Source: a virus
Lineage: Duplodnaviria > Caudoviricetes
IMG/VR virus record: IMGVR_UViG_3300038530_001546
Coordinates: 1-31,438 of that record
Strand: one strand, 5' to 3'
Length of the DNA stretch: 31,438 nucleotides
Below are positions 1 to 29,978 of this stretch, piece after piece. The translations under genes and the position numbers were made by a program. The notes under the pieces were generated by a model, which was not told the origin of the DNA, did no database searches, and was given only the letters and a program-made list of their open reading frames with translations. Position 1 is the first letter of the stretch. Each line of letters begins with the position of its first letter.

Positions 1-239
1 CCAACCGCGACAACAATTGCACCAACCCCGGTCGATATTAATGCAGCCTTAAACGCTTGTAAGGCCGGTATTGCGGTCATAATACCCGTACCGGCTGCTT
101 TAAACGCTGCGCCAATTGAAAGGCCGGACGCGGTACCCGTTGCGCCTGTTGTTGCAAGGTCCTTATTTAATTTTTTTGTTTTTACGGTTGCCTTGCCGGT
201 TTGTATTTTTATATTTATTACCTGTTCTTGCTTTGCCAC
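1..239 (-). CDS. Tape measure protein N-terminus (second tail module), truncated by window edge
   Basis: Not in ORF track. Manual translation from GTG at 239: MAKQEQVINIKIQTGKATVKTKKLNKDLATTGATGTASGLSIGAAFKAAGTGIMTAIPALQAFKAALISTGVGAIVVAVG. The Ala/Gly-rich KAALISTGVGAIVVAVG segment is typical of Bacteroidota phage TMPs. Confidence 0.7.
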   Translation of the reverse strand, partial: MAKQEQVINIKIQTGKATVKTKKLNKDLATTGATGTASGLSIGAAFKAAGTGIMTAIPALQAFKAALISTGVGAIVVAV

Positions 240-370
240 GCCAACTCCTGTTTAATTTGTTTTAACCCCTCTTTAAATGTTTGAGGTAATTTATATTTGC
301 CTTTTGCAATTCTTATGTTTTCGGTTTCGCCTTTTGCTTGCGGCAATAATTTTATTATACTGCTAATCAT
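218..370 (-). CDS. Small hypothetical phage protein (50 aa)
   Basis: Not in ORF track. MISSIIKLLPQAKGETENIRIAKGKYKLPQTFKEGLKQIKQELAWQSKNR; fills the gap and overlaps both neighbours. Confidence 0.65.
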   Translation of the reverse strand: MISSIIKLLPQAKGETENIRIAKGKYKLPQTFKEGLKQIKQELAWQSKNR

Positions 371-2615
371 AACTCTCGTACGTTAAACAATTTATTAACT
401 CGATATCGCTTTCGCCTGTTGTTAAATTTGTTGATATTGAGTTTATATTATATTCCTCTTGTTTGTAAATAAATTTATCAGATAACGAATAATTTAGCAA
501 AATTTTTAAAGGTAGGTATGCCTTTATTTTTATTATTCGCCTTCGCCTGTTAAAAATATCCTTTATGTATTTTGTATATTCCTCGTTAAATAGTGAACCC
601 GTAAACGAGGTGTCTTGGGTATATTCGTTTATTTCGTGTCCAAAGTGTAACGTTTCGCCGCCCTGGCTTGCGCTTATATGCAATGAATTACTTGGGATAT
701 TCGCATAACTCCTTTGCGTAACGGTTGTTATTTGATCCGGATTTTCTGAATCAACAACGCTCCCAACATTATACGCGCCTATATTTTGAAAGATAGGATA
801 AAATAATAACGGTGCGCCTTTATAACTGTTTCGGCTTTCATTAACACTCCAACCCCACTGTATATCCTTTAACGTACCGTTTGCCGGGTCTGTTAAACGT
901 TCAAATTGAAAATGCCCAAACGGCACCTCAACCTTGTATAATTGGCCGCCAATTTCTTTTAATGTTGCCTCGGTATAACTCAACTCACCCCAACCCTTGT
1001 TTGCAAGTTGGCGGTAACGTTCGGCCAAAAATGATTTTGAATCCTTGTATTTAAACAAAACCTTTTTATACGGCAAAGCAACATTTACAACTTCTTTGGT
1101 AATATCAATATACTCGTCAATTTCGTAACGTGCCGGGTTTGCATAATAATCGTCAAGGGGTTTTACAACTATGTTTTTTGTTGTATCTGACGAGTTTTCT
1201 GTATCTACAAACGCAACCAAATTAAACATTTTAAACAAACCACTTAACAAATCAATTGTTTTTAATTCCGGTATTTGTTGCGTTATATTGAAACGAAAAA
1301 CCGAGGCCGTTGAAAATGGACCCGCACTAACAAAAGATTGAAAATTGAAAAATTGCGTACCGCCTTGACTTCCAATAACCTTGCCGCCATAATACGAACA
1401 CGTTACTTTAAACTCACTAACGTTAATAACATTTGCGGCAACAATATCAAACGTTAAAACAGATCCCAAATATAAAAAATCGTCAATATCGCTCGGGTTG
1501 GTGCCGGGTGTGTTTGGGTTCCACGTAAAGCTTGAGTCGCCCGTTACTTGCGCGCTTACAAATACAGGCGTATCGTCTAATTGTGCAAACATTCGCACGC
1601 GGTAAGGATCGGTTTCGGACGGCGGTACATTTACCTCGATTTTAAATTGTGTAAATTGAAAATTAAGAGGAAAGCCTCCCGAGCCTGGGCTTGTTATAAA
1701 AAAAAGTTGGCCATCAGTAAAAAACCCGTTATCGGGGTTGTTATCTGCGCCTACAATTGGACTCGTAACAACTGAATCAAAATCATCAACCGGCGTAATT
1801 GTCTCCTCGTTACCGCTTAAATTTTCAACGTGACCGCTTTTCCTATGTAACCACATATATAAATTGTTCATTTTAGGTATTGAGGCATTGTTAAAAAAAT
1901 CATTGCTAAATCTTAAATTAACAGGATAAGCCGGTGTTGAATACTTGGTCTCAATTGCTTGTATTAATACGTTTACATTAATAGCATATTTCAATTGGGT
2001 CCAAGGTAAACCCTGTTTGTAATTCCCGGCATTGTCCGGGTCGTTTGTTGGTTTTAAATTACCGCTTTGATCGAACGAATCGGCGGCGGTTGATGAATAA
2101 TACAAACGTTTTGTATGCGTAATTAAAGGAGTTATTACCGGTTTTGGTGTGCCGCTACTATCAACAAAATTTTGACTTAAACCGCCCAATACTGCGCCCG
2201 GCCCGTATAATTTAGAATATGAGTCGAGCGGTAAACTGCTTAATTTATCCTCACCAATTAGGTCTTTTAATTCAACGGTTGCGCCGTAAAATGTAACCTT
2301 ATAATTAGCCGGTTTTCGTTCTGTTAATTGTACGCCGTTTAATTGTAATTTACCTTTTTCAAATGTTATATTGTTGACCTGTATTTCTGCATTTACACGC
2401 TCACGCGCATCGTACCCGTCCTCGATATTGAAATTATAATAATGTTTAAATAATTTATTATTTTTTTTGGATGCCGGTAAGGTAAACGTTTGCGTAAATG
2501 CCGTAAAAATTTTAGCAACGTCTTTTATATTTTTGAGGCTTTTAGTTATTTTAATAGTTTCGTCTTGAAACATATCAACTCGCTCACCCTGGACAAATAA
2601 TTGAACCTTTAACAT
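363..2615 (-). CDS. Large minor tail / tail-tip hub protein (750 aa)
   Basis: N-terminus VQLFVQGERVDMFQDETIKITKS..FTQTFTLPASKKNNKLFKHYYN and C-terminus YNINSISTNLTTGESDIEL resemble Bacteroidota siphovirus tail proteins; lies upstream of a TMP. Confidence 0.65.
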   Translation of the reverse strand: MLKVQLFVQGERVDMFQDETIKITKSLKNIKDVAKIFTAFTQTFTLPASKKNNKLFKHYYNFNIEDGYDARERVNAEIQVNNITFEKGKLQLNGVQLTERKPANYKVTFYGATVELKDLIGEDKLSSLPLDSYSKLYGPGAVLGGLSQNFVDSSGTPKPVITPLITHTKRLYYSSTAADSFDQSGNLKPTNDPDNAGNYKQGLPWTQLKYAINVNVLIQAIETKYSTPAYPVNLRFSNDFFNNASIPKMNNLYMWLHRKSGHVENLSGNEETITPVDDFDSVVTSPIVGADNNPDNGFFTDGQLFFITSPGSGGFPLNFQFTQFKIEVNVPPSETDPYRVRMFAQLDDTPVFVSAQVTGDSSFTWNPNTPGTNPSDIDDFLYLGSVLTFDIVAANVINVSEFKVTCSYYGGKVIGSQGGTQFFNFQSFVSAGPFSTASVFRFNITQQIPELKTIDLLSGLFKMFNLVAFVDTENSSDTTKNIVVKPLDDYYANPARYEIDEYIDITKEVVNVALPYKKVLFKYKDSKSFLAERYRQLANKGWGELSYTEATLKEIGGQLYKVEVPFGHFQFERLTDPANGTLKDIQWGWSVNESRNSYKGAPLLFYPIFQNIGAYNVGSVVDSENPDQITTVTQRSYANIPSNSLHISASQGGETLHFGHEINEYTQDTSFTGSLFNEEYTKYIKDIFNRRRRIIKIKAYLPLKILLNYSLSDKFIYKQEEYNINSISTNLTTGESDIELINCLTYESYD

Positions 2616-3818
2616 TTATCTTATATTTTGAATATGATCAAAAGCAAAATCAAAGTTTAATTCATATTGTATATTTGCTTTATTATTTACGCCTGTTTTA
2701 CGTGTTAAATTTTGTGAACGCAAAATAACAGGCCTTACCGTTAATGAACTATCCTCAAGCCATACTTGCTCGCTTGTTAATAATTGCTCAATTGCCGGGT
2801 TTAAACATTCGTTTAACAATTCAGTATTTAACGTTATTGACTGTTGTGCGGTAACTTGAAAACGTTTATTACTATGTTTATACAATGAATACGACGGCCC
2901 GGTTGTTTTCGTTGCTTCAATAGTAACCGACTTGTAATCTTTGCTTTTTGTATTTGTTTTTATTGTGTGTTTTGTAGGCAACCAAAACGATTGTAACGCA
3001 CCAAATTTATTATAATATATTGCGCGGTATGCCTCGTATTTTGGGTGACAAACCTCGTTTAACGTTAGCGTTACGCTTTGCGAATTACCACTCGTTGAGG
3101 TTATTGTAATCGTGTCGCCTGTTACTGCGTTATCGGTTGTTATTTGTAAATAATATATTTTGTCGCCGCTTTCATTTGAGTCCGTTGTTGGTGTTGGTAA
3201 ACTGTTATCGCTATCATTCCAATTTGAATCCTCAACGTCCCAAAATTCATCGGTAAAATTCCAAACCGCATCCGTTACGGTTGTTTGAGCCTGCGGCAAT
3301 GGTTCCGAAAATATAGGTATTTTAATATCGCGCCCACGTACAAACGGGATGCAAGTATTTGTTTGCAAAACCATTGGCGTAAAACCGGCGGAGTTTGTCG
3401 GATCATTTGAGGTCCTTGGGTTAATACCCTCCTCAAATTCGCCATAACCGTCAAAGGCTAAATATGTTTGTTCGTCTGTTGTACCGCCTCCCGGGGCGTT
3501 TAATGTTGCGCCCGTATCATCCTCACGCACCGCGCTTATAAAAACCCAAACCGCGTCAACCGCCTCGGTATAATACTCGGTTTCTAAATAATCGCGTATT
3601 AATTCGCTTATTTCAATAACAACAAAATTGTCGGTTGTTTCTTTTACAAATTTTGTAACCGTATAAGTTGCCGTTGTTGGTTTGTCATTTGTAACGTGTC
3701 CCGAATAAATAAAAATAGAATATATAACCTTAAACAAATTCTCGTTTGCGCCCTGGTCGCTTGGGTTTGATATACTCTTAATATAATACGGGCTTCTTGC
3801 GTTTATTATTGTACTCAT
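2616..3818 (-). CDS. Structural protein, probable distal-tail-like (400 aa)
   Basis: Begins INARSPYYI and contains YYNKFGALQSFW and IEQLLTSEQVWL; beta-rich and located in the tail cluster. Confidence 0.55.
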   Translation of the reverse strand: MSTIINARSPYYIKSISNPSDQGANENLFKVIYSIFIYSGHVTNDKPTTATYTVTKFVKETTDNFVVIEISELIRDYLETEYYTEAVDAVWVFISAVREDDTGATLNAPGGGTTDEQTYLAFDGYGEFEEGINPRTSNDPTNSAGFTPMVLQTNTCIPFVRGRDIKIPIFSEPLPQAQTTVTDAVWNFTDEFWDVEDSNWNDSDNSLPTPTTDSNESGDKIYYLQITTDNAVTGDTITITSTSGNSQSVTLTLNEVCHPKYEAYRAIYYNKFGALQSFWLPTKHTIKTNTKSKDYKSVTIEATKTTGPSYSLYKHSNKRFQVTAQQSITLNTELLNECLNPAIEQLLTSEQVWLEDSSLTVRPVILRSQNLTRKTGVNNKANIQYELNFDFAFDHIQNIR

Positions 3819-3822
3819 TTTA

Positions 3823-4371
3823 TTATTTTTTGCTTTCTATTTTTTTAGCCGTTTTATGTATTTCGTTTGCAACATCCTCACCAACTGCACGAGCCAATTT
3901 TAACTCAACCCACTTTTGAGAGGTTTGAAATGAACGCGTTAAAAACATTGTTGACCTTATGCCTTTGTCGCGTATGCTGCGCGCAATTAAAAAACCTATT
4001 GTATTATAATTGCCTTTTGCAAATTGCCCTTTATCATTGCGTAAACGTATGTTACGTTTTTTGGCCCAATTCGCCAACGTTTCAACGGGCGGTATTTTTG
4101 AACTTGACTTAAACGAATACGGACTTGATGAGGTATTACCATCCGCATAATACGCGTTTGCACCTCGCACCCCTTTATCCAAAAATTTACCGTAACCCAA
4201 CATTGAAATTAAAATATCAATACCTTGGTTATTTTTTTTTATTTCTGATTTTAACGAATTGTATAAATTTTTATCAACGTTATGTTTTCCTTTTGTAAGG
4301 CGCGACCTACTTTGTTGAACAATATATTTACCCCACTTCTCGGCAATTTTATTAACGTTTATGAATTGCAT
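3823..4371 (-). CDS. Neck/tail-completion (HK97 gp10-like, virion morphogenesis) protein
   Basis: Basic 182-aa protein with LYNSL, YGKFLDKGVRG and IARSIRDKGI..FLTR motifs; position in the cluster. Confidence 0.55.
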   Translation of the reverse strand: MQFINVNKIAEKWGKYIVQQSRSRLTKGKHNVDKNLYNSLKSEIKKNNQGIDILISMLGYGKFLDKGVRGANAYYADGNTSSSPYSFKSSSKIPPVETLANWAKKRNIRLRNDKGQFAKGNYNTIGFLIARSIRDKGIRSTMFLTRSFQTSQKWVELKLARAVGEDVANEIHKTAKKIESKK

Positions 4372-4850
4372 CGGTCTATATTATTACGCGTTGTTAATTG
4401 AAAATTAAAACTCCACCCGGCGAGGACGTTTTCAAATCGATCGCGAAACGGCTCGGCCGTTACATTTTCTTTATTTATATAAACGTTACCATCATATAAA
4501 TCGCCAACAAATAATTTATCGACAATATGGTTGCCAACGTTTAACATTGAATTTAAAACGTATAACTCGCTTGAGTTTTGGTATATGCTGGGTTCGCTTT
4601 CAATACCAAGGTCATTGTGAACAATATCCATTATTAAAATACTAACCTCGTAATTTATTGTCGTGCTGCCAAAATTTGCTTGCCCAATTACAATATGCGC
4701 CAAAGGATATATTGTTTGTTTGTCTAAATCAATATCACCAATATCGCCAACCGTTACGGTATTTATTAATTTATTATTTAATAACGCATCCCGTAATTTT
4801 TCAACAATTTTAAAATAACTTTGGGCGCCTATGTTTTGGTCTATGCTCAT
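4359..4850 (-). CDS. Putative tail terminator / tail-completion protein
   Basis: GDIGDIDLDKQTIYPLAHI and EPFRDRFENVLAGW; size and position fit. Confidence 0.5.
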   Translation of the reverse strand: MSIDQNIGAQSYFKIVEKLRDALLNNKLINTVTVGDIGDIDLDKQTIYPLAHIVIGQANFGSTTINYEVSILIMDIVHNDLGIESEPSIYQNSSELYVLNSMLNVGNHIVDKLFVGDLYDGNVYINKENVTAEPFRDRFENVLAGWSFNFQLTTRNNIDRCNS

Positions 4851-5103
4851 TTATATTTATTTTTTATTTGTTTGCTTTCTACTTCTAATTTTTCTTTTTC
4901 AAATGCTAACATTGTTAAACATTGGTTTATATTTAATTCTGTTATTTCATTAAATCGCCTAATATCTCCTTGTGCCAATTGGTATAAACTCGAGTACCAA
5001 CCCCACTTTTTGCCAAAGCCTCCAACTGTTGACGGTGTTTCGCCAACTCCGGGTCCGTTGTATAATTCATCATAACGCTCGACAATTCTATCCCTAAATT
5101 GTA
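4847..5103 (-). CDS. -1 frameshift extension of the 4942..5601 gene (fusion about 251 aa)
   Basis: After CTT TTT TTT the -1 frame is open: LQFRDRIVERYDELYNGPGVGETPSTVGGFGKKWGWYSSLYQLAQGDIRRFNEITELNINQCLTMLAFEKEKLEVESKQIKNKYK. Its TGA overlaps the ATG of 4359..4850 (ATGA). Confidence 0.7.
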
Positions 5104-5601
5104 AAAAAAAAGCATTGAACTAACAACCGCACTCATTGGCATATCCAACATTACATCGTGTAACAGATCCCCTTTATATTCTTGAATTGTATATTTTTCG
5201 CCTCGTTGTTGTGTTACGGGCCTATATAATACACTCATTGCCTTATGTAATTCGTTTACTTTGCCAATAAAATTGTCGAGGTCTATATATTCGCCAAATG
5301 TTATATTTTCCAAATCCGGCACAAAACCAAAGGTTGTTTGCCCAAGTTGAAACGTGCGGACGAGTTTTGGTTCCTGTAATAAAATGTCCGTTAATTCAGT
5401 AACAACCCGGTTAAAATCATTTAACGTCATTGCGGCCGCCTGTTCGTATGTAATGCCACAAAATATCTCAACCATTTTAACTTGAATAAAACGCTCCGAA
5501 TTTTTATCATCAACGTTAGTATTTAAAACGCGATCATATTTTTGGTATTCGCGTAATGTTATATCCTCCAGGCCTTGCGGCATTTGTATTTTTATTTTCA
5601 T
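4942..5601 (-). CDS. Putative tail assembly chaperone-like protein (219 aa) with internal slippery site
   Basis: First gene of the left structural cluster; run of nine T at 5103-5111 (minus strand) in the X XXY YYZ register. Confidence 0.55.
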   Translation of the reverse strand: MKIKIQMPQGLEDITLREYQKYDRVLNTNVDDKNSERFIQVKMVEIFCGITYEQAAAMTLNDFNRVVTELTDILLQEPKLVRTFQLGQTTFGFVPDLENITFGEYIDLDNFIGKVNELHKAMSVLYRPVTQQRGEKYTIQEYKGDLLHDVMLDMPMSAVVSSMLFFYNLGIELSSVMMNYTTDPELAKHRQQLEALAKSGVGTRVYTNWHKEILGDLMK

Positions 5602-5643
5602 ATTGTTATAACGTTTGTTTTAAAAAAGTTTTTAAAAATAGAC

Positions 5644-5674
5644 AAAAAAAAGGGTTGCGCATGCAACCCCTTTT
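5644..5674. terminator. Rho-independent terminator (possibly bidirectional)
   Basis: A8-GGGTTGC-gcat-GCAACCC-cTTTT hairpin with U tracts on both sides. Confidence 0.8.
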
Positions 5675-5697
5675 AATTTGGTATTTTATTTAATCTC

Positions 5698-5931
5698 TCA
5701 TTTTATTTGTGTTTTTAATTTTGTTACTAAATTTTTATGATCCTGTTTTATGCGCTTTTGTTCGTCTGAATATGCCTTGTTTGTAAATTGAAAAATTGCC
5801 GGCAAATCCTTATATAATTCATAAGCGTTAATTTCAAAATCTAAATTTTCGCCTTCGTTAGTTGTTGCGCTTAAATATACCGTCCCGTCCGAGCCGGCTA
5901 TTGTTGTAAAATTGTTTAAGTAAAAATCCAT
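5698..5931 (-). CDS. Hypothetical protein (77 aa)
   Basis: ORF track; A-rich leader; last gene before the terminator. Confidence 0.7.
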   Translation of the reverse strand: MDFYLNNFTTIAGSDGTVYLSATTNEGENLDFEINAYELYKDLPAIFQFTNKAYSDEQKRIKQDHKNLVTKLKTQIK

Positions 5932-5937
5932 AATTGT

Positions 5938-6096
5938 TTATTTAATGTTATATATAATTGTACGGGCCTCACATTCCAGGTCCTCCCATTTTCTCCATTT
6001 TTTAATATCGGCCTCGTCTATTGCCTGGGCTTTCATTTTTTGGCAATGCCTAATTTTGTCTTTTAAATCATCGAGTTGTGTTCTATTGTTTCTCAT
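5938..6096 (-). CDS. Hypothetical protein (52 aa)
   Basis: Manual: MRNNRTQLDDLKDKIRHCQKMKAQAIDEADIKKWRKWEDLECEARTIIYNIK; ATGA-coupled to the upstream ORF. Confidence 0.65.
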   Translation of the reverse strand: MRNNRTQLDDLKDKIRHCQKMKAQAIDEADIKKWRKWEDLECEARTIIYNIK

Positions 6097-6197
6097 AATA
6101 AGTGTGTTTTAATAATTAAATAAATTGTTGTTAGTAATAATCCAACGTAACTCCAAAACGCCATTTTATAAGCGCTTTCATTTTTTGGGTTTTCCAT
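6093..6197 (-). CDS. Small single-TM protein (34 aa)
   Basis: Manual: MENPKNESAYKMAFWSYVGLLLTTIYLIIKTHLL; overlaps both neighbours. Confidence 0.55.
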   Translation of the reverse strand: MENPKNESAYKMAFWSYVGLLLTTIYLIIKTHLL

Positions 6198-6393
6198 TGG
6201 TTGCTTTTTTAATTTGTATTATTGCCGTGCAAATATCCAACGCTTGCCACTCGGTCGGCTTAAGTTTCTCGTGTTTACTCCAAAGGCGGCTTTGGTAATC
6301 CTGTAAATGTTCGAGGTCCCATAACATAAATACCTCCCACATAAACGCGTTAGCGCTTGATCGTATAAAATTTGTGTATTGATTTTGTTTCAT
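6178..6393 (-). CDS. Hypothetical protein (71 aa)
   Basis: ORF track; leader AATAATAAACA-ATG. Confidence 0.65.
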   Translation of the reverse strand: MKQNQYTNFIRSSANAFMWEVFMLWDLEHLQDYQSRLWSKHEKLKPTEWQALDICTAIIQIKKATNGKPKK

Positions 6394-6410
6394 TGTTTAT
6401 TATTTTTAAA

Positions 6411-6554
6411 TTATTCGGCAAAATATGAACCATCCGCTTTTACATAAAAAGCTTGACTTCCCTTTTCTACTAAAACCAAGTCCCCGGTTTTGTAAACATA
6501 TTCAAATCCTTTATTTTCTAATCTTGTAATTGTACTTTTTTGTTGTGATGTCAT
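6411..6554 (-). CDS. Hypothetical protein (47 aa)
   Basis: Manual: MTSQQKSTITRLENKGFEYVYKTGDLVLVEKGSQAFYVKADGSYFAE; leader AATAAACAATAAAACA-ATG. Confidence 0.65.
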   Translation of the reverse strand: MTSQQKSTITRLENKGFEYVYKTGDLVLVEKGSQAFYVKADGSYFAE

Positions 6555-6575
6555 TGTTTTATTGTTTATTATTAT

Positions 6576-6612
6576 ACTGCTAATATACAAACATTTGTTA
6601 ATATACCAAACT
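6576..6612 (-). promoter_or_regulatory. Putative Bacteroidota-type promoter for the small-gene cassette
   Basis: Minus strand TTTG..(spacer)..TATATTAG, a near match to -33 TTTG / -7 TAnnTTTG. Confidence 0.5.
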
Positions 6613-6637
6613 TTTTTTTAATTTTTTTTATTTTTTT

Positions 6638-6781
6638 TTATAGCATATCCGCCTCCGAACACGCCCCGCAACAATACGGGCCTTTGTGTATAGGTTTATC
6701 GCAATATCTGCAATTGTTCTCGGGTTCATTCCAACCCCTGTAATTGTGCTCTTGTTCTACTAACCAATCGTCGTAATTCAT
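6638..6781 (-). CDS. Small zinc-finger protein (47 aa)
   Basis: Manual: MNYDDWLVEQEHNYRGWNEPENNCRYCDKPIHKGPYCCGACSEADML (CxxC..CCxxC); ATGA overlap with the MTase stop. Confidence 0.7.
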   Translation of the reverse strand: MNYDDWLVEQEHNYRGWNEPENNCRYCDKPIHKGPYCCGACSEADML

Positions 6782-7404
6782 AATTTTAATCTTAATTGTT
6801 GTTTATGTTGTTGTATTCGTTTTATTGCTGCGGCATAATAGCCGGGATCTGTTTCGCACGCCGTTAATTGATGGCCCAAATTGTGACAAGCAATAGCAAT
6901 CGAACCGCTCCCCAAATGCGTATCCAAAATTTTATCGCCCGGGTTCGCGTAATTCATTATTAACCATTCGTATAATTTTATTGGTTTTTCTGTTGGGTGT
7001 ATTCTTGGCGTGCCGTTGTTAGCATTGGCGCCAACCCAACTAACCTTATATTTACGTAACGCACGTTTAAAACTTGTAAACGCTAACTCGCCATCACTAA
7101 AATCATTTGAACCCGTACCTTTATCCCAAAATATCCAACCGCTCGAACCTGGCAAAAATTCCGTCATATAATTAGCGCCAAATATAATTTGATTTTTGCT
7201 AACCCTAAATAATTCATCAAAATAATTTTGGTTTGGTACGTTCGCATCCCACTCACTCGATCCCCGGTCAATTTTATTTTTGCCGTTTCCTAAAGTCATT
7301 TTTGTTACGTTAATACCATACGGGGGGTCGACAATCGCCAAATCAAAATATTTGTCTGCGTATCTTGACATTAATTCCATGTTGTCTTCATTTGTTATTT
7401 TCAT
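6778..7404 (-). CDS. DNA N6-adenine/N4-cytosine methyltransferase (beta class)
   Basis: DPPY catalytic motif, HPTEKP, and ILDTHLGSGS SAM-binding motif. Confidence 0.92.
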   Translation of the reverse strand: MKITNEDNMELMSRYADKYFDLAIVDPPYGINVTKMTLGNGKNKIDRGSSEWDANVPNQNYFDELFRVSKNQIIFGANYMTEFLPGSSGWIFWDKGTGSNDFSDGELAFTSFKRALRKYKVSWVGANANNGTPRIHPTEKPIKLYEWLIMNYANPGDKILDTHLGSGSIAIACHNLGHQLTACETDPGYYAAAIKRIQQHKQQLRLKL

Positions 7405-7408
7405 TTTT
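7331..7408. repeat. Direct repeat copy 1 (MTase 5' end; partner 9703..9780)
   Basis: Identical 20-mer acaatcgccaaatcaaaata and 27-mer ttgtcttcatttgttattttcattttt, both at offset 2372. Confidence 0.9.
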
Positions 7409-7419
7409 ATTTTTTATTA

Positions 7420-9093
7420 TCAAAACGGAATATTATCCTTTATTACCTCAAATTTTTTAGTTTCCAAGTCAACATCTTTATAGATTCCGCCATTTTTAAA
7501 ATCCGGTGCCAAATCAAAATCCCCCAATTGGCCGTTTTCTTTTCGTTTAACCTTTTCAATATATATTTTAACAACGTCGGAATTGTATTTTGTACGCTCA
7601 CCAATGCAGCGGTAAACAATCAAACCGTTATAAGCTTTATTAAAAAAATCGGCTGATCCGCTAATATCGTAAAGTGTCGGCTTTTTATACCGTCCGTTTT
7701 CAGATTCTATTTTTCGGGGGTGCGCAACCAAAAACAAATGCGTGTTTGTTTGTTGACAAAATTGCGTTATTTCTGAAAGCGCGCGGCCAATATATGAATG
7801 ATCACGTTGCGCTGAATGATCTAACATATTCCATGGGTCAATAACACAAACGTTGATTCCTTTTTGAAATACTAAATCCCGAAACGCATTTAAAATACCT
7901 TTGAGCGTTAAATTTTCCAAATCTATTTTAACCCAATAAAAATGGTCTTGAATGAAATATTTTGTTTGATTTAATTGGTCGTTGTTGCAATTAGTTTCGT
8001 TTAATTTGTTTGCAATTCGTTTAATGTGGCCTTCATATGGAAATGATTCAGGCGCAAACATAGCGCAACGCATATCGTATTTTAAAGCCATATTACAACA
8101 AATTTGATCCATGACGTCAGATTTGCCCGAATTGGGAATCCCGGTCACAACGGACCATTGTCCTAATTCCATTTTAAAATAATTATCTGCGTTTGGCAAA
8201 CCGATTGAATAATTTTTGACGCCGTTTTCGTTATAAGTTAAAACACTTTGCCAAATATTGTCAAGATTTAAAACGCCTTCCAATGGAAAGTTTTTAGCCG
8301 TTTTAATAACGTTTCGCAAAGTTTCGGCCCCTTTTGTTGTTAATATCTCGTTAGCATCTTTAAAATCGCCAAAATCGACGTATTTGCAACGATACGCGCC
8401 GAAGCGTCGCGCTAATTCATTTCGCAATTGAATGCCTGGATTGTCGTTGTCGGTGCAAAGTATAATTTCTTTTTTGTCTTTAAAGTATTCAAAACAGTTG
8501 TCCAAATATTCCAAACGCTGATTGCCTTTTGACGCGCCGTTTGGCACGGAACAAACGGAATAAATTCCGGCCTCGTGTAATGAAAGCGCGTCAAGTTCAC
8601 CTTCAACAATGTATATTTTTTGCATTGTTTTGATATTATCAAGGCCGTAAAATATTAACTCCGCGCCCGAAACCATTTTAAAATTCTTTTGGCCGTCACG
8701 ATATTTGACATTCACTAAATCATTTTCGCGGTAGTAATTAAAATTAATTGCGCGTCGTTTTTTACCCACTTGAGGAAAATATTGCAATGATTCGCCAATT
8801 TTCCAATGTTGCAACGTTGGTTCGGATATACCGCGATTGACAAACCATTTGATCACGCGTTCGGTCAAATTAACTTTTATTTTTTCCGGGCGAATGAAGT
8901 CTTTTTTCTTTTGAAATTTTGTTGTTCCAGAAAATCCGCAGTTGTGACAATTAAATAAACCTTTGTCAATATCAACGGACAAACATTTGTCGCGTTTGTT
9001 TTTTCGTGTGTGACTGCATTTTGGACATTGTGTTTTTATTTTACCGGTTGTTTTGTTGCCGATATCAATTCCGAAATCGTGAAATGTTTTCAT
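7420..9093 (-). CDS. Primase-helicase (T7 gp4/Twinkle-like)
   Basis: N-terminal Zn finger (CPKC..CHNC), TOPRIM (IVEGELDALS, TDND), Walker A GIPNSGKS, IDPWN and AHPRK SF4 motifs. Confidence 0.92.
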   Translation of the reverse strand: MKTFHDFGIDIGNKTTGKIKTQCPKCSHTRKNKRDKCLSVDIDKGLFNCHNCGFSGTTKFQKKKDFIRPEKIKVNLTERVIKWFVNRGISEPTLQHWKIGESLQYFPQVGKKRRAINFNYYRENDLVNVKYRDGQKNFKMVSGAELIFYGLDNIKTMQKIYIVEGELDALSLHEAGIYSVCSVPNGASKGNQRLEYLDNCFEYFKDKKEIILCTDNDNPGIQLRNELARRFGAYRCKYVDFGDFKDANEILTTKGAETLRNVIKTAKNFPLEGVLNLDNIWQSVLTYNENGVKNYSIGLPNADNYFKMELGQWSVVTGIPNSGKSDVMDQICCNMALKYDMRCAMFAPESFPYEGHIKRIANKLNETNCNNDQLNQTKYFIQDHFYWVKIDLENLTLKGILNAFRDLVFQKGINVCVIDPWNMLDHSAQRDHSYIGRALSEITQFCQQTNTHLFLVAHPRKIESENGRYKKPTLYDISGSADFFNKAYNGLIVYRCIGERTKYNSDVVKIYIEKVKRKENGQLGDFDLAPDFKNGGIYKDVDLETKKFEVIKDNIPF

Positions 9094-9112
9094 TGTTTAT
9101 TGTTTTCAATTG

Positions 9113-9137: not shown

Positions 9138-9776
9138 TTAAAACAATCTTTGTTGAGCCTTATGTTCTTTAATTCTTTTAATGGCTGCCTTAAAATAATC
9201 TTTGTCAAGTTCGCACGCCGTTAAATCAAAACCTAAATTGTGGCATGCAATTGCAATGGTACCGGAACCCAAATGAGTGTCTAAAATTTTATCATTCTTT
9301 TTTGCGTAATTCATTAACAGCCATTCGTAAAGGGATACCGGTTTTTGGCAAGGGTGCCACTTTAATTTGTTTTCCCAATCAATTTTGTTTCCAATAACAT
9401 TGCCAATTGAAGTGTAATGATAAATTTTCATATTTACGCCAAAACTATGTGAAGCTATATCACAATCAGACAATACTTTGGGTGAATTTCTTTTGCCACC
9501 TCCCGTTTTATCGTGTATAATGCGCCCAACATCATCAATAAATTTATTATAATAATTAACTCCAAAAATTATTCTGTTTTTTGTAACTCTAAATAATTCG
9601 TCAAAATATTCTTTGTTTGGTGTTTTATTATTCCAATTAATTTTTTTGTGATGTTTTTGAGATTTTGTACTTCTGAAATCTCCTATTCCATAAGGCGGAT
9701 CAACAATCGCCAAATCAAAATAGTTGTCCGGATACCTTGCCATTAACTCCATATTGTCTTCATTTGTTATTTTCAT
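9138..9776 (-). CDS. DNA N6-adenine/N4-cytosine methyltransferase (beta class)
   Basis: DPPY, HPCQKP, ILDTHLGSGT. Confidence 0.92.
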   Translation of the reverse strand: MKITNEDNMELMARYPDNYFDLAIVDPPYGIGDFRSTKSQKHHKKINWNNKTPNKEYFDELFRVTKNRIIFGVNYYNKFIDDVGRIIHDKTGGGKRNSPKVLSDCDIASHSFGVNMKIYHYTSIGNVIGNKIDWENKLKWHPCQKPVSLYEWLLMNYAKKNDKILDTHLGSGTIAIACHNLGFDLTACELDKDYFKAAIKRIKEHKAQQRLF

Positions 9777-9781: not shown

Positions 9782-10315
9782 TTAAATTTTTGGCATATAA
9801 TAAAATAAATTTTCAATGTTTTTTAAATCCCTATTTTTTATTTGATAGTTGTTTGTTTTCATTATAAAAGACGTTCCATTGTCTCGACTCATTGTATCGC
9901 CTTTTTTAATATAAATTGATTTTTGCAACAATTCTTTTTTGCTTAAATATCCGCAAATTGTTAATTCGTTTTTTTTCTTGTTTAATGAGCAAAATATATA
10001 TATATCACAATCAAATTTTTTTTGGTGCGCGACAAAATTATTGACAAAATAATCTTTGACATCAACATTGCGTCCCATTGTTTTAACGTCTATTTTTAAA
10101 CCTTTGTAAACCAAATCAAAACCGCCGTCAAACCCATTTTTAATTTTGTGATTAAAACCAAATAAACGTTTGATCATTATTTCGCCAATCAATCCAACAA
10201 ATTGTTGTTCCTTGGTCCCGTTGAATTCAAAGCGGTTGCCAATATTATTTTGATTGACGAAATGCCAAACATCTTTTTTAAGTTTTTCCGGGATTTTAAA
10301 TTTTTTATAAACCAC
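9782..10315 (-). CDS. Putative PD-(D/E)XK nuclease (restriction-endonuclease-like fold); likely start GTG 10315
   Basis: GLIGE..DGGFDLVYKGLKIDVKT fits the E..D..(D/E)xK active site. The ORF-track start at 10351 overlaps the upstream gene more than necessary. Confidence 0.55.
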   Translation of the reverse strand: MVYKKFKIPEKLKKDVWHFVNQNNIGNRFEFNGTKEQQFVGLIGEIMIKRLFGFNHKIKNGFDGGFDLVYKGLKIDVKTMGRNVDVKDYFVNNFVAHQKKFDCDIYIFCSLNKKKNELTICGYLSKKELLQKSIYIKKGDTMSRDNGTSFIMKTNNYQIKNRDLKNIENLFYYMPKI

Positions 10316-11141
10316 AATGTCCGGAATCGCATTCGTTAAAATCATCATCAAAAAGTTTTGTTTGTCGTAAACTGTTTTTTATATTTATATATTTGTATCC
10401 ATTTTTAAATTTTCTTTTTTTATTTTCCTGGTTAATAAACCAATCAAATTTGTTTGGGTGTTTTTCGCTCATGTGTTTTAATAAAACCGGTGAACGATGA
10501 AAACAACCAATGCAGTTGTTCATGTAAGCAAACCGGACATTTTTATTTTTCCAATATTCTTCAATTTGATCTTTATAAATATTGTTTTCAATTAAGGGAA
10601 AAACGGGTTTTTGCCATTCTACAACAGACCAACGATTTTGTTTTCCATTTTTTGATTTTCCAATAATTGTTTTAAATTCCGAATTTCCGTTTTTGTTAGT
10701 TTTTTCCAAAATTTTTTTGGCGCGCCTTTGTTCGTTGGCACGGAATCCGATACGCATTTCAATAACTTCATTTATATTATTAAACCACCATTCAACGATT
10801 GGGCGCAATTTCATTTCGGTTGTGCAAAATCTTTGAACTACGTTTGGCAATCTTTGTTTATTTTCAATAATATTTTCAAAAGTTTTGCCGGCTAACCAAT
10901 TAATTTTTTTGCCGATAAATTGTTCCAAATCTAAAATTGTATAAATTATAGTATCGTCCTCCAACGTTCCGATAAATTCGCGGCCAATTTTGTCACTTAC
11001 AATTTGTCGCAATTTATGATCTGGAAACAAACAATTTTTGTCGTTTGTTGTAATTAAAGCAAAAACATTGAAATCGGCCGGAAAATTTGCCGCGATATAT
11101 GACGAAGTTTTGCCGCCACTTAATGAATTAATTGTCTTCAT
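10305..11141 (-). CDS. PAPS-reductase-family (PP-loop) protein
   Basis: SLSGGKTS PP-loop, RFCTTEMK, IGFRANEQRRA, NNCIGCF and C-terminal ECDSGHCGL. Confidence 0.8.
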   Translation of the reverse strand: MKTINSLSGGKTSSYIAANFPADFNVFALITTNDKNCLFPDHKLRQIVSDKIGREFIGTLEDDTIIYTILDLEQFIGKKINWLAGKTFENIIENKQRLPNVVQRFCTTEMKLRPIVEWWFNNINEVIEMRIGFRANEQRRAKKILEKTNKNGNSEFKTIIGKSKNGKQNRWSVVEWQKPVFPLIENNIYKDQIEEYWKNKNVRFAYMNNCIGCFHRSPVLLKHMSEKHPNKFDWFINQENKKRKFKNGYKYINIKNSLRQTKLFDDDFNECDSGHCGL

Positions 11142-12015
11142 TCAAAACGTATTTTTTTAAATCTTTAAATTCATTTGACATCATTAAACCCCGAATTTGA
11201 AATTCGTGAATGTTGCCATTTTTAGTTTTTGCGCCAATTTCTTTTTTGCCGTTGGACGGATTTTTATATACAAAAAACTCTTGAAGATTTTTAATTTTTG
11301 TAAATCCAACCGGTTTTTGTTTTGCCTTTTGCTGCACCATGAATCGATCAATATATTTGATTCCGTTTTTGTCGGCGTTTCTCAATTTTAAAATTGATAA
11401 AAAATTGTTTTGCCAGAACTGATCATTTCTTAATTGTTTTGAAACGTTGTATACTTCGCGTAAATCGTAACCGTCCAACCTTTGCAATTTGTCCAAACAA
11501 TCCAACCATTTATTTTTTTGGGTTTCTGATTTGGGGCGATATTTTAAATCAAATAATGCTGCAAAATGCGGAAATGCGTTTGTTGTTTTTTCATCAAATT
11601 GGCGCTTTTCCGATTTTGTGTTATTATCTTTTTCTATTTTATTTATATAGTTATATATATTATCCTTTAACTTTTTTTCAAGGGGGGTGTTTAACTTTTT
11701 TTCAATACCTATTGAATTTTTGTTAAAGGGGTCTGCAATAAATATTCGACGTTGTTTGATTTGTTTTGTGCCGGTGTGATATTTATATTTAATTTTTATA
11801 AAGTTGTTGTTTTCCAGGGCCGAAATCCATTTTGAAACACTTGTTTTAGTGACGCCGTATAATTTTGAAAAGTATTCATTTGAAGCATAACAGTAACCGG
11901 AATCATTTGCCAAGGCCGTTATTTCGCCATACATTAATTTTGCGTTTGGTTGTAGTTTTTCACAATATCGAACCGGTGCCGGAATTACAGCAAAATAGTT
12001 TTTTTTGTTTTTCAT
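11128..12015 (-). CDS. Replication initiator-like protein with N-terminal winged HTH
   Basis: YFAVIPAPVRY..AKLMYGEITAL..GYCYASNEYFSKLYGV..VSKWISALE (HTH_36-like), with internal DNA repeats. Confidence 0.8.
   Translation of the reverse strand: MKNKKNYFAVIPAPVRYCEKLQPNAKLMYGEITALANDSGYCYASNEYFSKLYGVTKTSVSKWISALENNNFIKIKYKYHTGTKQIKQRRIFIADPFNKNSIGIEKKLNTPLEKKLKDNIYNYINKIEKDNNTKSEKRQFDEKTTNAFPHFAALFDLKYRPKSETQKNKWLDCLDKLQRLDGYDLREVYNVSKQLRNDQFWQNNFLSILKLRNADKNGIKYIDRFMVQQKAKQKPVGFTKIKNLQEFFVYKNPSNGKKEIGAKTKNGNIHEFQIRGLMMSNEFKDLKKYVLNEDN
11635..11730. repeat. Putative replication origin: iterons plus AT-rich tract
   Basis: tttaactttttttcaa exact at 11666-11681 and 11690-11705, degenerate copy at 11711-11726, adjacent AT-rich tract at about 11635-11665, inside the initiator gene. 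Confidence 0.6.
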
Positions 12016-12037
12016 TCATTCAAAGTAAAAATATTTT

Positions 12038-12894: not shown

Positions 12895-13620
12895 TTAAAA
12901 AAGTTTTAATTGTGTTTGTTTTATTCTTTGTTTTGCTATCTCGAAATACTTATTGTCTTGTTCAATCCCTATAAAGTTTCTTTTGGTGTTTAAACAAGCT
13001 ACGCCCGTTGTACCGCTGCCCATTGTAAAGTCTAAAACTGTTTCATTCTCGTTGGTGTAAGTTTTTATTAGGTACTCCATTAAATCTATTGGTTTTTCTG
13101 TTGGGTGTTTTTTATATCTTTTATTAGCGTTGCTTATTTCTATTATAGCTTTTGGATAATACTCATTATTAATAGTGTAATAGTCTAATTTGACCTTACC
13201 AATATGTTCAGGTTGTTTGTTTAATCCTCCCTTTTTTCTTGGCTTACCTCTTTTTTCTTTTATTGGATAGTAATTGTGTTTGTTAAAAACAAGTATGTCT
13301 TCATAAGTTTTTAAAGGCTGTTTTTTTGCGTTTAGTGGATTGCCTCCTTGTTTTTTATCCCATTTCCAATCATATTTGTAATTTTTAATATTACTCATTC
13401 TCAAAGCACTACTAAAAGGTTCATTGCCAAACAAAACTGTTGCACCGTTTGGTTTTATTATTCTGTTTAACTGTTCCCACATAGGCTCAAAAGGTATTAC
13501 ACTGTCCCATTTACATGCTGTTGTTCCATAGGGTGGGTCTGTTATTATAGCGTCTATTGAGGCGTCAGATATTGATTTCATTATTTCAAGACATTCTCCT
13601 TTTACTAAATCTATTTTCAT
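12895..13620 (-). CDS. DNA N6-adenine/N4-cytosine methyltransferase (beta class)
   Basis: TDPPYGTTACKWD, HPTEKP, VLDFTMGSGTT. Confidence 0.93.
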   Translation of the reverse strand: MKIDLVKGECLEIMKSISDASIDAIITDPPYGTTACKWDSVIPFEPMWEQLNRIIKPNGATVLFGNEPFSSALRMSNIKNYKYDWKWDKKQGGNPLNAKKQPLKTYEDILVFNKHNYYPIKEKRGKPRKKGGLNKQPEHIGKVKLDYYTINNEYYPKAIIEISNANKRYKKHPTEKPIDLMEYLIKTYTNENETVLDFTMGSGTTGVACLNTKRNFIGIEQDNKYFEIAKQRIKQTQLKLF

Positions 13621-13996: not shown

Positions 13997-14752
13997 TTAT
14001 AATATTAAACTTCCGTCGTCGTGAAATTCATTCCAGGAATAACCCGAAACAATACCCGTTTCGCAATAAATTTTCCAATCATCAAACGCCCTTTTCCATG
14101 CTTTGCGGCCTTGATCAATCATTTCGTCGCTTAATGTGTAAACTTCAACCGTGAAAGGATGATTTGTTTCAACGGCAATAAATTTAAAATTTTCAATGCC
14201 GCATTGATCCATATAAAAAGCCGCTTGCAAATGATAAGCATATTTATACACGTCACGTCGAAAAGCCGAAGGCGCGTTGTCTTGGCATGTTTTAACGTCC
14301 GAAATAAAACCCGAAACGCGATTAAGACAATCGGGGCGGACCCGAACGTCCAAACCCTCGTGTTTACCATAATGAGACAATTCAATTTCGCCTTGACAAT
14401 ATTTTTTCGCCAAATCGTGTTTTCTAAAGTTTTCCAAAATTTTTGTAATTTTTTCGTGATCATCAAAAGAAACAATTTTTTTGCCTTCGGCTTTTTTTTG
14501 TTCAATTTCAAATTGTTCTTTTCCGGCTTTTGTGCGGCGATCAATTTTTGGCATGACGTGAAAATCTTTGTAATAGAGTTCCGGTTCTAATATGGCGCAA
14601 TGTACCGCCGTTCCAAGCGCCATTGCTGACGATTCAAACGGTTTTTGGTTAATCAAATGATATACCGATTTTTTATAAATAGATTTTAAACCCGAGGCGC
14701 TGATTCCTGGCGAGGAATGATATTTTTCGTTTGTGTCAAATTGTGTTTTCAT
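13997..14752 (-). CDS. RecE/exodeoxyribonuclease VIII-like 5'-3' exonuclease (PD-(D/E)XK, DUF3799)
   Basis: YHSSPGISASGLK, GTAVHCAILEP, RVRPD..SDVKT, YHLQAAFY. Confidence 0.88.
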   Translation of the reverse strand: MKTQFDTNEKYHSSPGISASGLKSIYKKSVYHLINQKPFESSAMALGTAVHCAILEPELYYKDFHVMPKIDRRTKAGKEQFEIEQKKAEGKKIVSFDDHEKITKILENFRKHDLAKKYCQGEIELSHYGKHEGLDVRVRPDCLNRVSGFISDVKTCQDNAPSAFRRDVYKYAYHLQAAFYMDQCGIENFKFIAVETNHPFTVEVYTLSDEMIDQGRKAWKRAFDDWKIYCETGIVSGYSWNEFHDDGSLIL

Positions 14753-14754
14753 TT

Positions 14755-14883
14755 TTATTGTTTTATATCGTTTTCAATTATTTGATAATTATTTATTTCA
14801 TCAATTATTGTTTCAAGTTTATCAATTTTTTTTTGCATTGCTTGAATTCTTAATTGCAAATATTTAATCATCAAATTTTCCAT
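14755..14883 (-). CDS. Small coiled-coil protein (42 aa)
   Basis: Manual: MENLMIKYLQLRIQAMQKKIDKLETIIDEINNYQIIENDIKQ. Confidence 0.6.
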   Translation of the reverse strand: MENLMIKYLQLRIQAMQKKIDKLETIIDEINNYQIIENDIKQ

Positions 14884-15243: not shown

Positions 15244-15747
15244 TTAAATATTAAATTTTTGCTTTATTTGTTCGCTGTATTGTTTTTTCATTAAAAAGCC
15301 GGCCAATACCTTTTCGGCTTGTTCTTTTGTTGCCTTCATTGTCGCATTGAATTGCGCGTCTGTCAGCCATTTTTTACCTTCTTTTATTTTAGGCTTTGAG
15401 GCGTTTTCATTTTTAACGGCGCTTTGTACTTCATCAGCCGAAGCAATTGACGTGTCAATCCCAATACCCAAATAACCCAACGCCCGGCCCAATGCCGAAG
15501 TAAAACCGTTTTCAACAAATGACGTTTTGTTAATATAATTGCTGTCACGGTACTCTTGCGAATGCGCCGAGGCAATTCTAACGCCTTTATTGTCGCTAAT
15601 TGTGACTTTAAAAATACCTTCCTTTTCGTCAATGTGGATCAATGATTCTTTTATTTGCCAACCATTAAATTTTGATTCGCTTCTAAAATATTTTAGACGC
15701 TCGTTAACCGTAATGTATTCGCGCCCCTTAATGTTAATTGTTTTCAT
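15244..15747 (-). CDS. Single-strand annealing recombinase (Rad52/Sak/ERF-like)
   Basis: YITVNERL, INKTSFVENGFTSALGRALGYLGIG, IASADEV; clustered with SSB-like and RecE-like genes. Confidence 0.7.
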   Translation of the reverse strand: MKTINIKGREYITVNERLKYFRSESKFNGWQIKESLIHIDEKEGIFKVTISDNKGVRIASAHSQEYRDSNYINKTSFVENGFTSALGRALGYLGIGIDTSIASADEVQSAVKNENASKPKIKEGKKWLTDAQFNATMKATKEQAEKVLAGFLMKKQYSEQIKQKFNI

Positions 15748-15765
15748 TCTATTAAATTTTAAAGG

Positions 15766-28970: not shown

Positions 28971-29003
28971 AAAAAAAAAGCGCCACATAAATTGTGACGC
29001 CTT
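28971..29003 (-). terminator. Rho-independent terminator
   Basis: GGCGTCACA-attta-TGTGGCGCT followed by a T run. Confidence 0.8.
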
Positions 29004-29040
29004 TTGAGAATGAAAACAATATGAAAAAACATTAAAGTAG
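28971..29040 (-). ncRNA. Candidate small RNA antisense to ATG-AAA-ACA / ATG-AAA-AAA start regions
   Basis: TAACTTTG box at 29043-29050, U-rich single-stranded region, then a terminator; 14-nt perfect complement to the start of 15244..15747. Function is inferred. Confidence 0.45.
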
Positions 29041-29394
29041 TGCAAAGTTATTAAAATTTTTTGAATACTTTTCCAAGCCAAGTGTGAAGGATTTTAAAAT
29101 CCCGTCGTTTTTTATTATAAAAAAACCGTTTCGTTGTTTTGAAAATATCGCAAAAAATTGAACGTCATACGTTGAATATAAATTGCCGTTTCGGTCACTT
29201 AAAAAAATTCGTTTGCGTGTTCGGTTTGATTCGTCAATTGCTTTGATCTGTACTTTTGACAATCCGTTTGGCGTGTCAATAATACAATCATAAACCGAAG
29301 TGTGAAGCAAAGGAAATGAAACCAAAAGATTGTTTTTCATTGCCTCAACGGCGAAAAGATATTCAGCGAAACAACCAAATCGGCTTGAATCCAT
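29032..29394 (-). CDS. Free-standing PD-(D/E)XK endonuclease (I-Ssp6803I-like family)
   Basis: GCFAEYLF..VSFP..YDCIID..KVQIK motif. Confidence 0.75.
   Translation of the reverse strand: MDSSRFGCFAEYLFAVEAMKNNLLVSFPLLHTSVYDCIIDTPNGLSKVQIKAIDESNRTRKRIFLSDRNGNLYSTYDVQFFAIFSKQRNGFFIIKNDGILKSFTLGLEKYSKNFNNFALL
29043..29050 (-). promoter_or_regulatory. -7 promoter box TAACTTTG inside the endonuclease 3' end
   Basis: Exact TAnnTTTG about 40 nt upstream of a terminator stem. Confidence 0.5.
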
Positions 29395-29407
29395 TTTATA
29401 AAGTTAT

Positions 29408-29440
29408 AAAAAAAAAGCGCTTAAATTAATAAGCGCCTTT
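29408..29440 (-). terminator. Rho-independent terminator
   Basis: GCGCTTA-ttaatt-TAAGCGC followed by T9. Confidence 0.8.
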
Positions 29441-29463
29441 TCAAAACTAACTAATAAATAAAA

Positions 29464-29616
29464 CTAATCACCGCCGTAAAGGGCCAACGATAAACCCAAA
29501 AAGAAAAGAAACAAAGTTCCAATAATATCGTTATAAAGAAACATTTGACGCGTTGCAAACACAAAAAATAAAATTGTTAAAACAAAGTTAATAAAATTGT
29601 TATAGTTGGTCCGCAT
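29464..29616 (-). CDS. Small two-TM membrane protein (50 aa from MRTNY)
   Basis: Two hydrophobic helices; the ATG at 29616 fits the overlap pattern better than 29652. Confidence 0.6.
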   Translation of the reverse strand: MRTNYNNFINFVLTILFFVFATRQMFLYNDIIGTLFLFFLGLSLALYGGD

Positions 29617-29725
29617 AAAAACACTGATTGCAACAATAATATTTGTCTTCACTTATTGGCGCTTGACAAACCCGGCATTCGAATTCGGGTTCGTCGCCCG
29701 GGAAATAATCTAAACCCCAAGCCAT
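29600..29725 (-). CDS. Small zinc-finger protein (41 aa)
   Basis: Manual: MAWGLDYFPGDEPEFECRVCQAPISEDKYYCCNQCFYADQL; homologous to 6638..6781. Confidence 0.7.
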   Translation of the reverse strand: MAWGLDYFPGDEPEFECRVCQAPISEDKYYCCNQCFYADQL

Positions 29726-29868
29726 GACGCAATATTTAAAGTTTGTAAAATATTATTGAAAAATTTATTGAATTTTGTTTGTGATTCAAAATTTTCAATT
29801 TCTTGTTTTGTATATACATTGACGCGTTTTCCGTCGTGTATTATAGTTAATCCGGTTGTTGTTTTCAT
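29710..29868 (-). CDS. Hypothetical protein (52 aa)
   Basis: Manual: MKTTTGLTIIHDGKRVNVYTKQEIENFESQTKFNKFFNNILQTLNIASWLGV; preceded by a promoter box. Confidence 0.65.
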   Translation of the reverse strand: MKTTTGLTIIHDGKRVNVYTKQEIENFESQTKFNKFFNNILQTLNIASWLGV

Positions 29869-29890
29869 TTGTCTAAAATTATATTTAAAA

Positions 29891-29898
29891 CAAAACTA
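29891..29898 (-). promoter_or_regulatory. -7 promoter box TAGTTTTG of the small-gene island
   Basis: Exact TAnnTTTG with TTG upstream, located after the MCP terminator. Confidence 0.65.
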
Positions 29899-29947
29899 AA
29901 AAAAAACTTTCAATTAAAAAAATATTTTTGGTTTTATTTTTATATAT

Positions 29948-29978
29948 AAAAAAGGCCCGGAATAAATCCAGGCCCTTT
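29948..29978 (-). terminator. Rho-independent terminator after the major capsid gene
   Basis: GGCCTGGA-tttat-TCCGGGCC followed by T6. Confidence 0.8.

Follow-up and report, generated by a model that had tools for sequence, protein, structure and literature searches.

A candidate small RNA predicted to pair with the start regions of its own phage's replication genes in a family of uncultured marine phages

The window analysed here, a 31,438-nt stretch of DNA, encodes a tailed phage of the HK97 type whose signals are of the Bacteroidota type. At the 3' end of a minus-strand gene encoding a PD-(D/E)XK endonuclease (29394-29032; PF11645, E-value 3.5e-7, above cut-off), the window harbors a compact promoter-seed-terminator unit on that same strand, and the TAACTTTG box, U-rich sequence and terminator that an earlier note on this DNA had described were all found in place (29050-28971). 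The TAACTTTG box (29050-29043) is of the Bacteroidota -7 type, for which the promoter consensus TAnnTTTG has been reported (PMC7366714), and falls within codons N-N-F-A of the coding end (NNFALL*) of the endonuclease gene. The transcription start was placed by inference 4 nt past this box; the usual spacing in Flavobacterium promoters is 4 or 5 nt (PMC6847099), and the oligonucleotide table of PMC11697453 indicates a spacing of 4 nt for FopS-10 as well. This start defines a predicted sRNA of 68 nt (29038-28971) that shares 7 nt with the 3' end of the upstream gene.

The 5' part of the predicted sRNA is a largely single-stranded, U-rich seed (29006-29038, minus strand; quoted in the earlier note as 29040-29006), containing two anti-AUG words that face plus-strand ATG triplets at 29021-29023 and 29010-29012. 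The two plus-strand mini-ORFs previously proposed as start-codon mimics do read MKTI* and MKKH*. The computed unpaired probability is 0.9-1.0 across the 3' 11 nt of the seed and 0.2-0.6 in a weak 5' hairpin. The remainder constitutes an intrinsic terminator (28971-29005, minus strand), with a 13-pair hairpin (29005-28975) and a tract of nine U. Folding of the 78-nt strand yields -16.5 kcal/mol (z -6.3), with the terminator as the sole stable helix, and the sRNA strand presents no ORF beyond the stop codon of the upstream gene. A second promoter-like box, TATCTTTA (28971-28964, minus strand), overlaps the U tract ahead of a DUF7210-like ORF (28948) and the head-tail genes, and is nearly invariant among 16 aligned sequences. 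As predicted from these elements, the unit would have the features of a trans-encoded sRNA, with its own promoter and terminator and no coding frame.

The endonuclease gene, which would share the terminator of the sRNA, is itself preceded by a TAACTTTA box (29394-29406) located 4 nt ahead of its ATG and overlapping the U tract of the upstream terminator; a spacing of 3-5 nt between this box and the ATG was found again in many relatives. Given this proximity, a leaderless endonuclease mRNA is predicted. Upstream of the nuclease gene (29410-29600), another TAACTTTG box (29590) precedes a U-rich stretch and a terminator.

The first 7,435 positions of the window are ~99% identical to a different phage, represented by contigs L422, L423 and L455, in which a terminase and a PAPS-reductase-like gene lie upstream of the segment matching window 1-7435. 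Judging from these matches, the window is a chimera, whether a misassembly or a recombinant, joined where the primase-helicase gene ends (7435); no terminase, portal or protease start of its own family is present, and there is a second tail module. Since positions 1-7435 derive from another phage, they were left out of the analysis; only the methyltransferase start at 7404 was retained, among the early starts. The window contains three DNA methyltransferase genes (6778-7404, 9138-9776 and 12895-13620), two of which have identical first seven codons (MKITNED); one of the three is at the chimera junction. The phages bearing the predicted sRNA make up a family of uncultured marine phages. A search of 50,697 phage records returned a best primase identity of 39% for cultured relatives and no matches for the PD-(D/E)XK nuclease. 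Family members also appear as stand-alone contigs in Saprospiraceae and Marinoscillum metagenome bins (L418, L419 and L420), which are weak host hints because one of the bins, at 12.8 Mb, looks mixed.

Within the window, the strongest predicted pairing of the seed is with the primase-helicase gene, across its leader and start (9085-9108, minus strand; first among 38 own start regions, -16.3 kcal/mol), with perfect matches of 11 nt in the leader (9098-9108) and 10 nt over the AUG. The second rank (-16.1 kcal/mol) corresponds to the start of a gene encoding a 167-aa putative annealing protein (15729-15750, minus strand), which matches the seed perfectly over 14 nt (15737-15750). The assignment of this protein, which returned no Pfam or NCBIfam matches, is only a lead, drawn from Slr1353_N dsRBD-like clusters. 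They are followed by the start of a PAPS-reductase-like gene (11131-11143, minus strand; third, -15.1 kcal/mol, 13 contiguous pairs with one G:U), a possible target, by the leader and start of a RecE/exonuclease VIII-like gene (14741-14769, minus strand; fourth, -12.5 kcal/mol, 10 nt perfect at 14744-14753) and by the start of the replication initiator gene (11998-12018, minus strand; fifth, -12.2 kcal/mol, 9 nt perfect). The start of a 52-aa ORF (29868) is a further possible target (29856-29874, minus strand; 11 nt perfect, -11.0 kcal/mol). The matches reported by the earlier note at six early starts were hence all recovered at their full lengths, and five of these targets do begin with MKT, a start present in none of the 19 structural genes, of which just one begins with MK.

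Using early and late labels based on gene order and homology, and start codons from a simple caller that got some wrong (the G011 primase start was mis-called), mean duplex energy was -9.9 kcal/mol for 19 early starts versus -7.2 kcal/mol for 19 late starts (Mann-Whitney p 0.007). Comparison with 500 dinucleotide shuffles gave a divided answer to the proposal that the seed pairs better than shuffled sequence: only 1.6-3.4% of the shuffles equal the real seed on three energy measures, but 6.2% do so on the count of matches of at least 9 nt, and when both UUUUCAU words are kept these figures become 1.2-4.6% on energy and 20% on match count. Taken alone, the window thus shows a modest pairing effect that is suggestive only, and it is the relatives, not the window shuffles, that provide the decisive evidence.

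A search with the PD-(D/E)XK protein identified 71 related loci (39-97% identity). Inspection by eye revealed that the box, the U-rich stretch, the hairpin and the next box are kept in 67 of the 70 loci having downstream sequence; the full layout is not kept in L070, L076 and L077. A search with the layout pattern added at least 120 further loci, with an estimated total of ~400 viral stretches. Following the removal of two off-family matches, 105 distinct elements were counted among the matches listed. Every one of them folds into a hairpin at least as stable as -10 kcal/mol, and C-G, U-A and G-C pairs replace one another at the same positions of the terminator stem; CAU is present in 75 of these 105 elements. 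The letters of the U-rich seed vary freely between relatives. A pattern search with the exact seed placed 11 of 25 loci in another context, so the seed alone is unspecific.

The lack of conservation in seed letters made it possible to examine whether each seed matches the start regions of its own genome. To this end, gene calls were made by homology and with a start-site matrix independent of the seed, and a double-centred seed-by-genome matrix was used to compare own with permuted seeds. For discovery, 27 related records were fetched and nine near-complete genomes with different seeds, the window included, were kept, the rejected records being near-duplicates or lacking early genes. In this set, the preference of own seeds for their three best own early starts was strongly supported (p 1e-5), and gene-wise signal was observed for the initiator (p 1e-4), the primase-helicase (p 1e-4), the annealing protein (p 0.003) and the first HTH gene (p 0.006), with no significant result for the RecE-like gene in these nine genomes (p 0.16).

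The held-out set was assembled from 30 further records, 24 of which contained a primase; 23 of these were fetched, 22 presented the element within the portion retrieved, and 19 distinct seeds were retained, some of them in genomes that share sub-lineages with discovery genomes. The signal was reproduced both for the top three early starts (z -10.0) and for the preset trio (z -9.7; permutation floor 5e-6), and 14 of the 19 seeds ranked their own genome first. By gene, z values were -8.6 for the primase-helicase, -6.1 for the initiator, -5.7 for the annealing protein, -4.4 for the RecE-like gene and -3.0 for the HTH gene. No signal was detected in this set at the early genes g81, VRR-NUC, DnaA-C and PD-(D/E)XK, and none of 19 late genes reached p 0.05. 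The idea that an entire early regulon is shut off was consequently narrowed: it stands for four or five replication and recombination genes, but not for all early genes. An avoidance of late genes by the seed, seen in the discovery set, was absent from the held-out set (z +1.2 and +0.1) and was discarded.

Over the 28 genomes, 80 of the 84 top-three sites are early, early starts being 501 of all 1,115. Own seeds outperform swapped seeds in 12 of 14 disjoint nearest-relative pairs, with a margin that rises with distance, and restricting the analysis to one genome per seed cluster (seven clusters with no common 10-mer) still yields p values between 1.5e-4 and 3.5e-4 in all six draws. The letters involved differ among genomes, as illustrated by a 14-nt match on the primase leader of G025 and a 13-nt match in G017, and own duplexes can be strong (-29.8 kcal/mol in G054, -25.4 kcal/mol at the G011 initiator). 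Poor ranks also occur: the initiator falls between 29th and 35th in four genomes, and the primase-helicase is 41st of 48 in G045. Two further pre-terminator stretches were tested identically in 27 genomes each. Neither the 36 nt preceding the next upstream terminator (window 29440-29410; z -1.0) nor the 36 nt preceding the capsid-gene terminator (z 0.0) presented own-genome preference, versus z -12.8 for the seed, which rules out composition and a genome-wide leader style as causes. On the same result, a second sRNA ahead of the 29440-29410 terminator was rejected; with no own pairing, any target of that stretch would lie elsewhere. The conserved layout and seed-target co-variation anticipated by the earlier note are therefore borne out in the nine discovery and 19 held-out genomes.

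Co-variation is not confined to coding sequence. In the primase-helicase (leader alone, z -10.7; codons 2-6 alone, z -6.7), the initiator and the putative annealing protein, both the leader and codons 2-6 co-vary on their own, whereas in the RecE-like gene co-variation is limited to the leader; leader co-variation equals or exceeds that of the codons. Seed matches peak at -3 to 0 relative to the AUG, and 72 of the 84 best duplexes span the AUG, with 59 pairing it fully. The primase-helicase begins with MKT in only 7 of the 28 genomes, and an anti-AUG is missing from 7 of the 28 seeds, leading us to reject an invariant anti-AUG or MKT address. Of the proposed address in N-terminal codons, what survives is the co-variation of codons 2-6 in three genes; but since leaders co-vary as well, MKT is only the address of the window's clade. 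In G035, the unrelated primase-helicase and annealing protein start with MKTFKD and MKTFKE, their first 16 coding bases being identical and 15 of them pairing contiguously with the phage's own seed. The G045 seed reads anti-AUG-G and pairs best with three targets whose proteins begin with Met-Glu.

Five seawater RNA runs contain a relative ~90-95% alike, in the form of assembled metatranscriptome contigs. Contigs carrying the head-tail genes end at window positions 28864, 28948 and 28956 (three runs from one study), beside the TATCTTTA box. No assembled RNA contig covers or bridges the ~70-nt unit; short RNAs are lost in such libraries, so these contigs neither support nor exclude the transcript.

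The layout of the unit, its conservation and the phage-by-phage match between seeds and start regions are established at the level of sequence, and the unit qualifies as a real, family-wide candidate sRNA. We consider it likely that it encodes a 68-nt trans-acting sRNA predicted to keep four of the phage's own mRNAs from being translated, those of the initiator, the primase-helicase, the putative annealing protein and the RecE-like gene. Host RNA polymerase would transcribe it from the TAACTTTG box, and the seed would pair with the replication mRNAs across their leaders and start codons. In Bacteroidota, translation begins at A-rich regions of weak structure, with no Shine-Dalgarno pairing (PMC6847099), and the sRNAs GibS and FopS repress through pairing at start codons (PMC7366714, PMC11697453). 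Because these two sRNAs act by covering such regions, we infer that pairing of the phage seed would hide the A-rich, unstructured start region used by the ribosome and block translation. The sRNA would accumulate as phage DNA multiplies and would then curb replication initiation and recombination while packaging proceeds. This role as a delayed negative feedback, and the timer that it implies, has in our view about an even chance of being correct. Joint rewriting of seed and targets in each lineage would maintain self-control and limit the cross-silencing of co-infecting relatives. No tyrosine integrase was detected in 20 near-complete genomes, and neither a resolvase nor a Cro/CI-type HTH_3 domain above cut-off in five complete genomes; a delayed lytic shut-off is accordingly preferred over lysogeny control. 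A bolder reading, which we regard as rather unlikely, is that the rewritable sRNA replaces a protein repressor as master off-switch of replication, each lineage recoding the RNA in concert with the leaders and N-terminal codons for three or four replication proteins that are unrelated to one another. The seed would then act as an RNA-based immunity type that determines whether the phage replicates or stays quiet without integrating, and which co-infecting relatives are permitted.

The same pairing could instead be exerted by the 3' end of the endonuclease mRNA, whole or processed. The seed is the 3' UTR of ORF 29394 and uses a common terminator, the Asn-Asn-Phe terminus is conserved as protein, and FopS-14 derives from a 3' UTR (PMC11697453). 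Against this, the box is fixed even at its synonymous positions: among the 49 distinct 3' ends taken from the protein search, the second Asn codon in the box is AAC in 47, versus 149 of 437 other Asn codons (34%), indicating that the TAACTTTG box is constrained at the DNA level, beyond the protein. Both exceptions lack a terminator, although L076 has a box and no terminator. This origin of the active species hence appears improbable. We deem it equally improbable, or slightly more so, that the sRNA is mainly a maintenance or exclusion factor, sustaining a carrier state of the non-integrated genome or, in the manner of c4, silencing superinfecting phages with the same address. Its targets are the genes required for starting replication, its seed diverges rapidly (105 versions among the matches listed), a host-type promoter could fire at once, and the lack of a Cro/CI-type HTH_3 above cut-off in the five complete genomes is compatible with such a role, but the results for integrase and resolvase in the genomes scanned argue against it. 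So do the lack of a partition protein among 25 scanned ORFs of the complete genome G047 and the occurrence of family contigs in bacterial bins without host flanks.

Returning to the trans-acting sRNA, its predicted pairing must be distinguished from a DNA-level site, in which a motif particular to each lineage would be bound by a phage protein, both at early genes and, as an inverted copy, beside the head-tail promoter. The frequency of G:U among mismatches (40 of 195 versus 511 of 2,649, p 0.71) leaves RNA pairing and plain sequence likeness unseparated, with wobble to anti-wobble ratios of 40:17 for own-early and 535:359 for other-early sites (no formal test), and promoter-like boxes lie near the 63-aa HTH gene in 17 of 24 genomes and near the primase-helicase gene in 9 of 28. 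However, matches are centred at -3 to 0 of the AUG and include promoter-less internal genes: two targets lie inside operons, and the 60 nt upstream of them contain a promoter-like box in only 1 of 19 genomes for one and 0 of 27 for the other, which disfavours an operator. Furthermore, different parts of the seed are used with variable gaps, and the copy is placed within a promoter-terminator unit, making this reading very improbable.

Still less credible is the proposal that the sRNA chiefly silences host MKK/MKT mRNAs, such as those of receptors, with the phage matches as a by-product. The 5' word of the window's clade, UGUUUUU(U)CAUA, also occurs in FopS, a repressor of SusC transporters, and MK starts pair better on average (-9.4 versus -7.1). 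Yet the seed tracks phage genes over 28 genomes, and in a sample of 240 bacterial starts (400 kb from two bins, one of them 12.8 Mb in size and hence mixed, not proven to be the host) only two starts, including 1 of 46 MK starts, reach -14 kcal/mol; the broad host silencing suggested by the earlier note is thus unsupported in this sample. Finally, an ordinary U-rich 3' UTR and terminator resembling A-rich starts by chance, for which one may cite the AU-richness of seed and targets, the MK starts of 10 of 19 early genes and the 13-nt perfect match at the start of gene 5601 in the foreign segment, is already contradicted by the held-out, control and seed-cluster results, the two other pre-terminator stretches and the late genes showing no own-genome preference, and has almost no likelihood left.

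Among known sRNAs, the closest likeness of the predicted phage sRNA is to FopS and GibS of Bacteroides thetaiotaomicron, with which it would share a length of ~70 nt, a TAnnTTTG promoter, a single-stranded U-rich 5' part, a terminator and pairing around start codons, all of them predicted from sequence in the phage. Agreement with FopS at the 5' word is limited to the first 10-11 nt and to the window's clade, and the ~36-nt conserved 5' seed of the Rfam consensus is otherwise absent. The window returned no Rfam match at gathering thresholds and only chance-level matches at E-values up to 10. Membership in the FopS family (RF04319) was rejected, with no match at the gathering score of 56 bits or at an E-value of 10; true copies score 67-82 bits, and all eight FopS loci used as a positive control were matched. 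Unlike FopS, which targets host glycan transporters (PMC11697453), the predicted sRNA is present in one copy per phage, and its seed, instead of being conserved, co-varies with replication genes of the same phage. FopS copies do occur in phage contigs: a 22-nt FopS motif was located in an estimated ~190 viral stretches (L138-L257), and since 8 of 8 tested loci match RF04319, FopS is common in viral contigs.

The c4 RNA of phages P1 and P7 is likewise phage-encoded and of similar size (77 nt versus 68 nt), and acts in trans on phage mRNA around the ribosome binding site (PMC12197685, PMC8198154). Sequence differences in c4 underlie P1/P7 heteroimmunity, which the fast seed divergence observed here recalls (PMC12197685). 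However, c4 is a structured RNA that pairs through its loops, and the operon under its control is that of the antirepressor in a temperate plasmid prophage (PMC12197685, PMC8198154), whereas the predicted sRNA has an open seed and four or more replication-gene targets 13-20 kb away, in phages that yielded neither an integrase nor a CI-type repressor. No C4-type family was present among 31 weak Rfam matches at E-values up to 10, and the best targets are replication genes, so membership was rejected here too. As with lambda OOP, aQ, PreS, P22 sar, phi24B 24B_1, VP882 VpdS and the PAK_P4 antisense RNAs, base pairing would tune phage development, but those RNAs address one regulator gene, mostly in cis, or host mRNAs, in proteobacterial hosts (PMC12197685). 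The main text of that review contains neither "Bacteroid" nor "Flavobact", and no Bacteroidota phage sRNA aimed at its own replication genes was found in the open-access literature searched. The phage unit would work like FopS/GibS and c4, and belongs to neither.

To our knowledge, few phage sRNAs have known targets. The present analysis indicates that in this family comparative sequence suffices to recognise the targets, backed by replication in held-out genomes and by matched negative controls, and suggests how small integrase-less phages that depend on the host polymerase could end replication on schedule with neither a repressor nor a sigma factor. It also points to regulatory pairing as a force shaping N-terminal protein sequence, and provides dozens of natural seed-target pairs as material on the initiation block in a phylum without Shine-Dalgarno pairing.

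Two additional observations concern gene content. Among the six near-complete relatives closest to the window, five lack the PAPS-reductase-like gene (window 10305-11141) and one has only part of it; the gene is 65% like a gene of the foreign phage L422 and is probably a recent arrival. The slot between the capsid and nuclease genes (window 29400-29950; also G001, G003, G009 and G048) holds variable small genes, several of which strongly match their own seed, as exemplified by a 74-aa MKTF gene in G048 (-20.2 kcal/mol).
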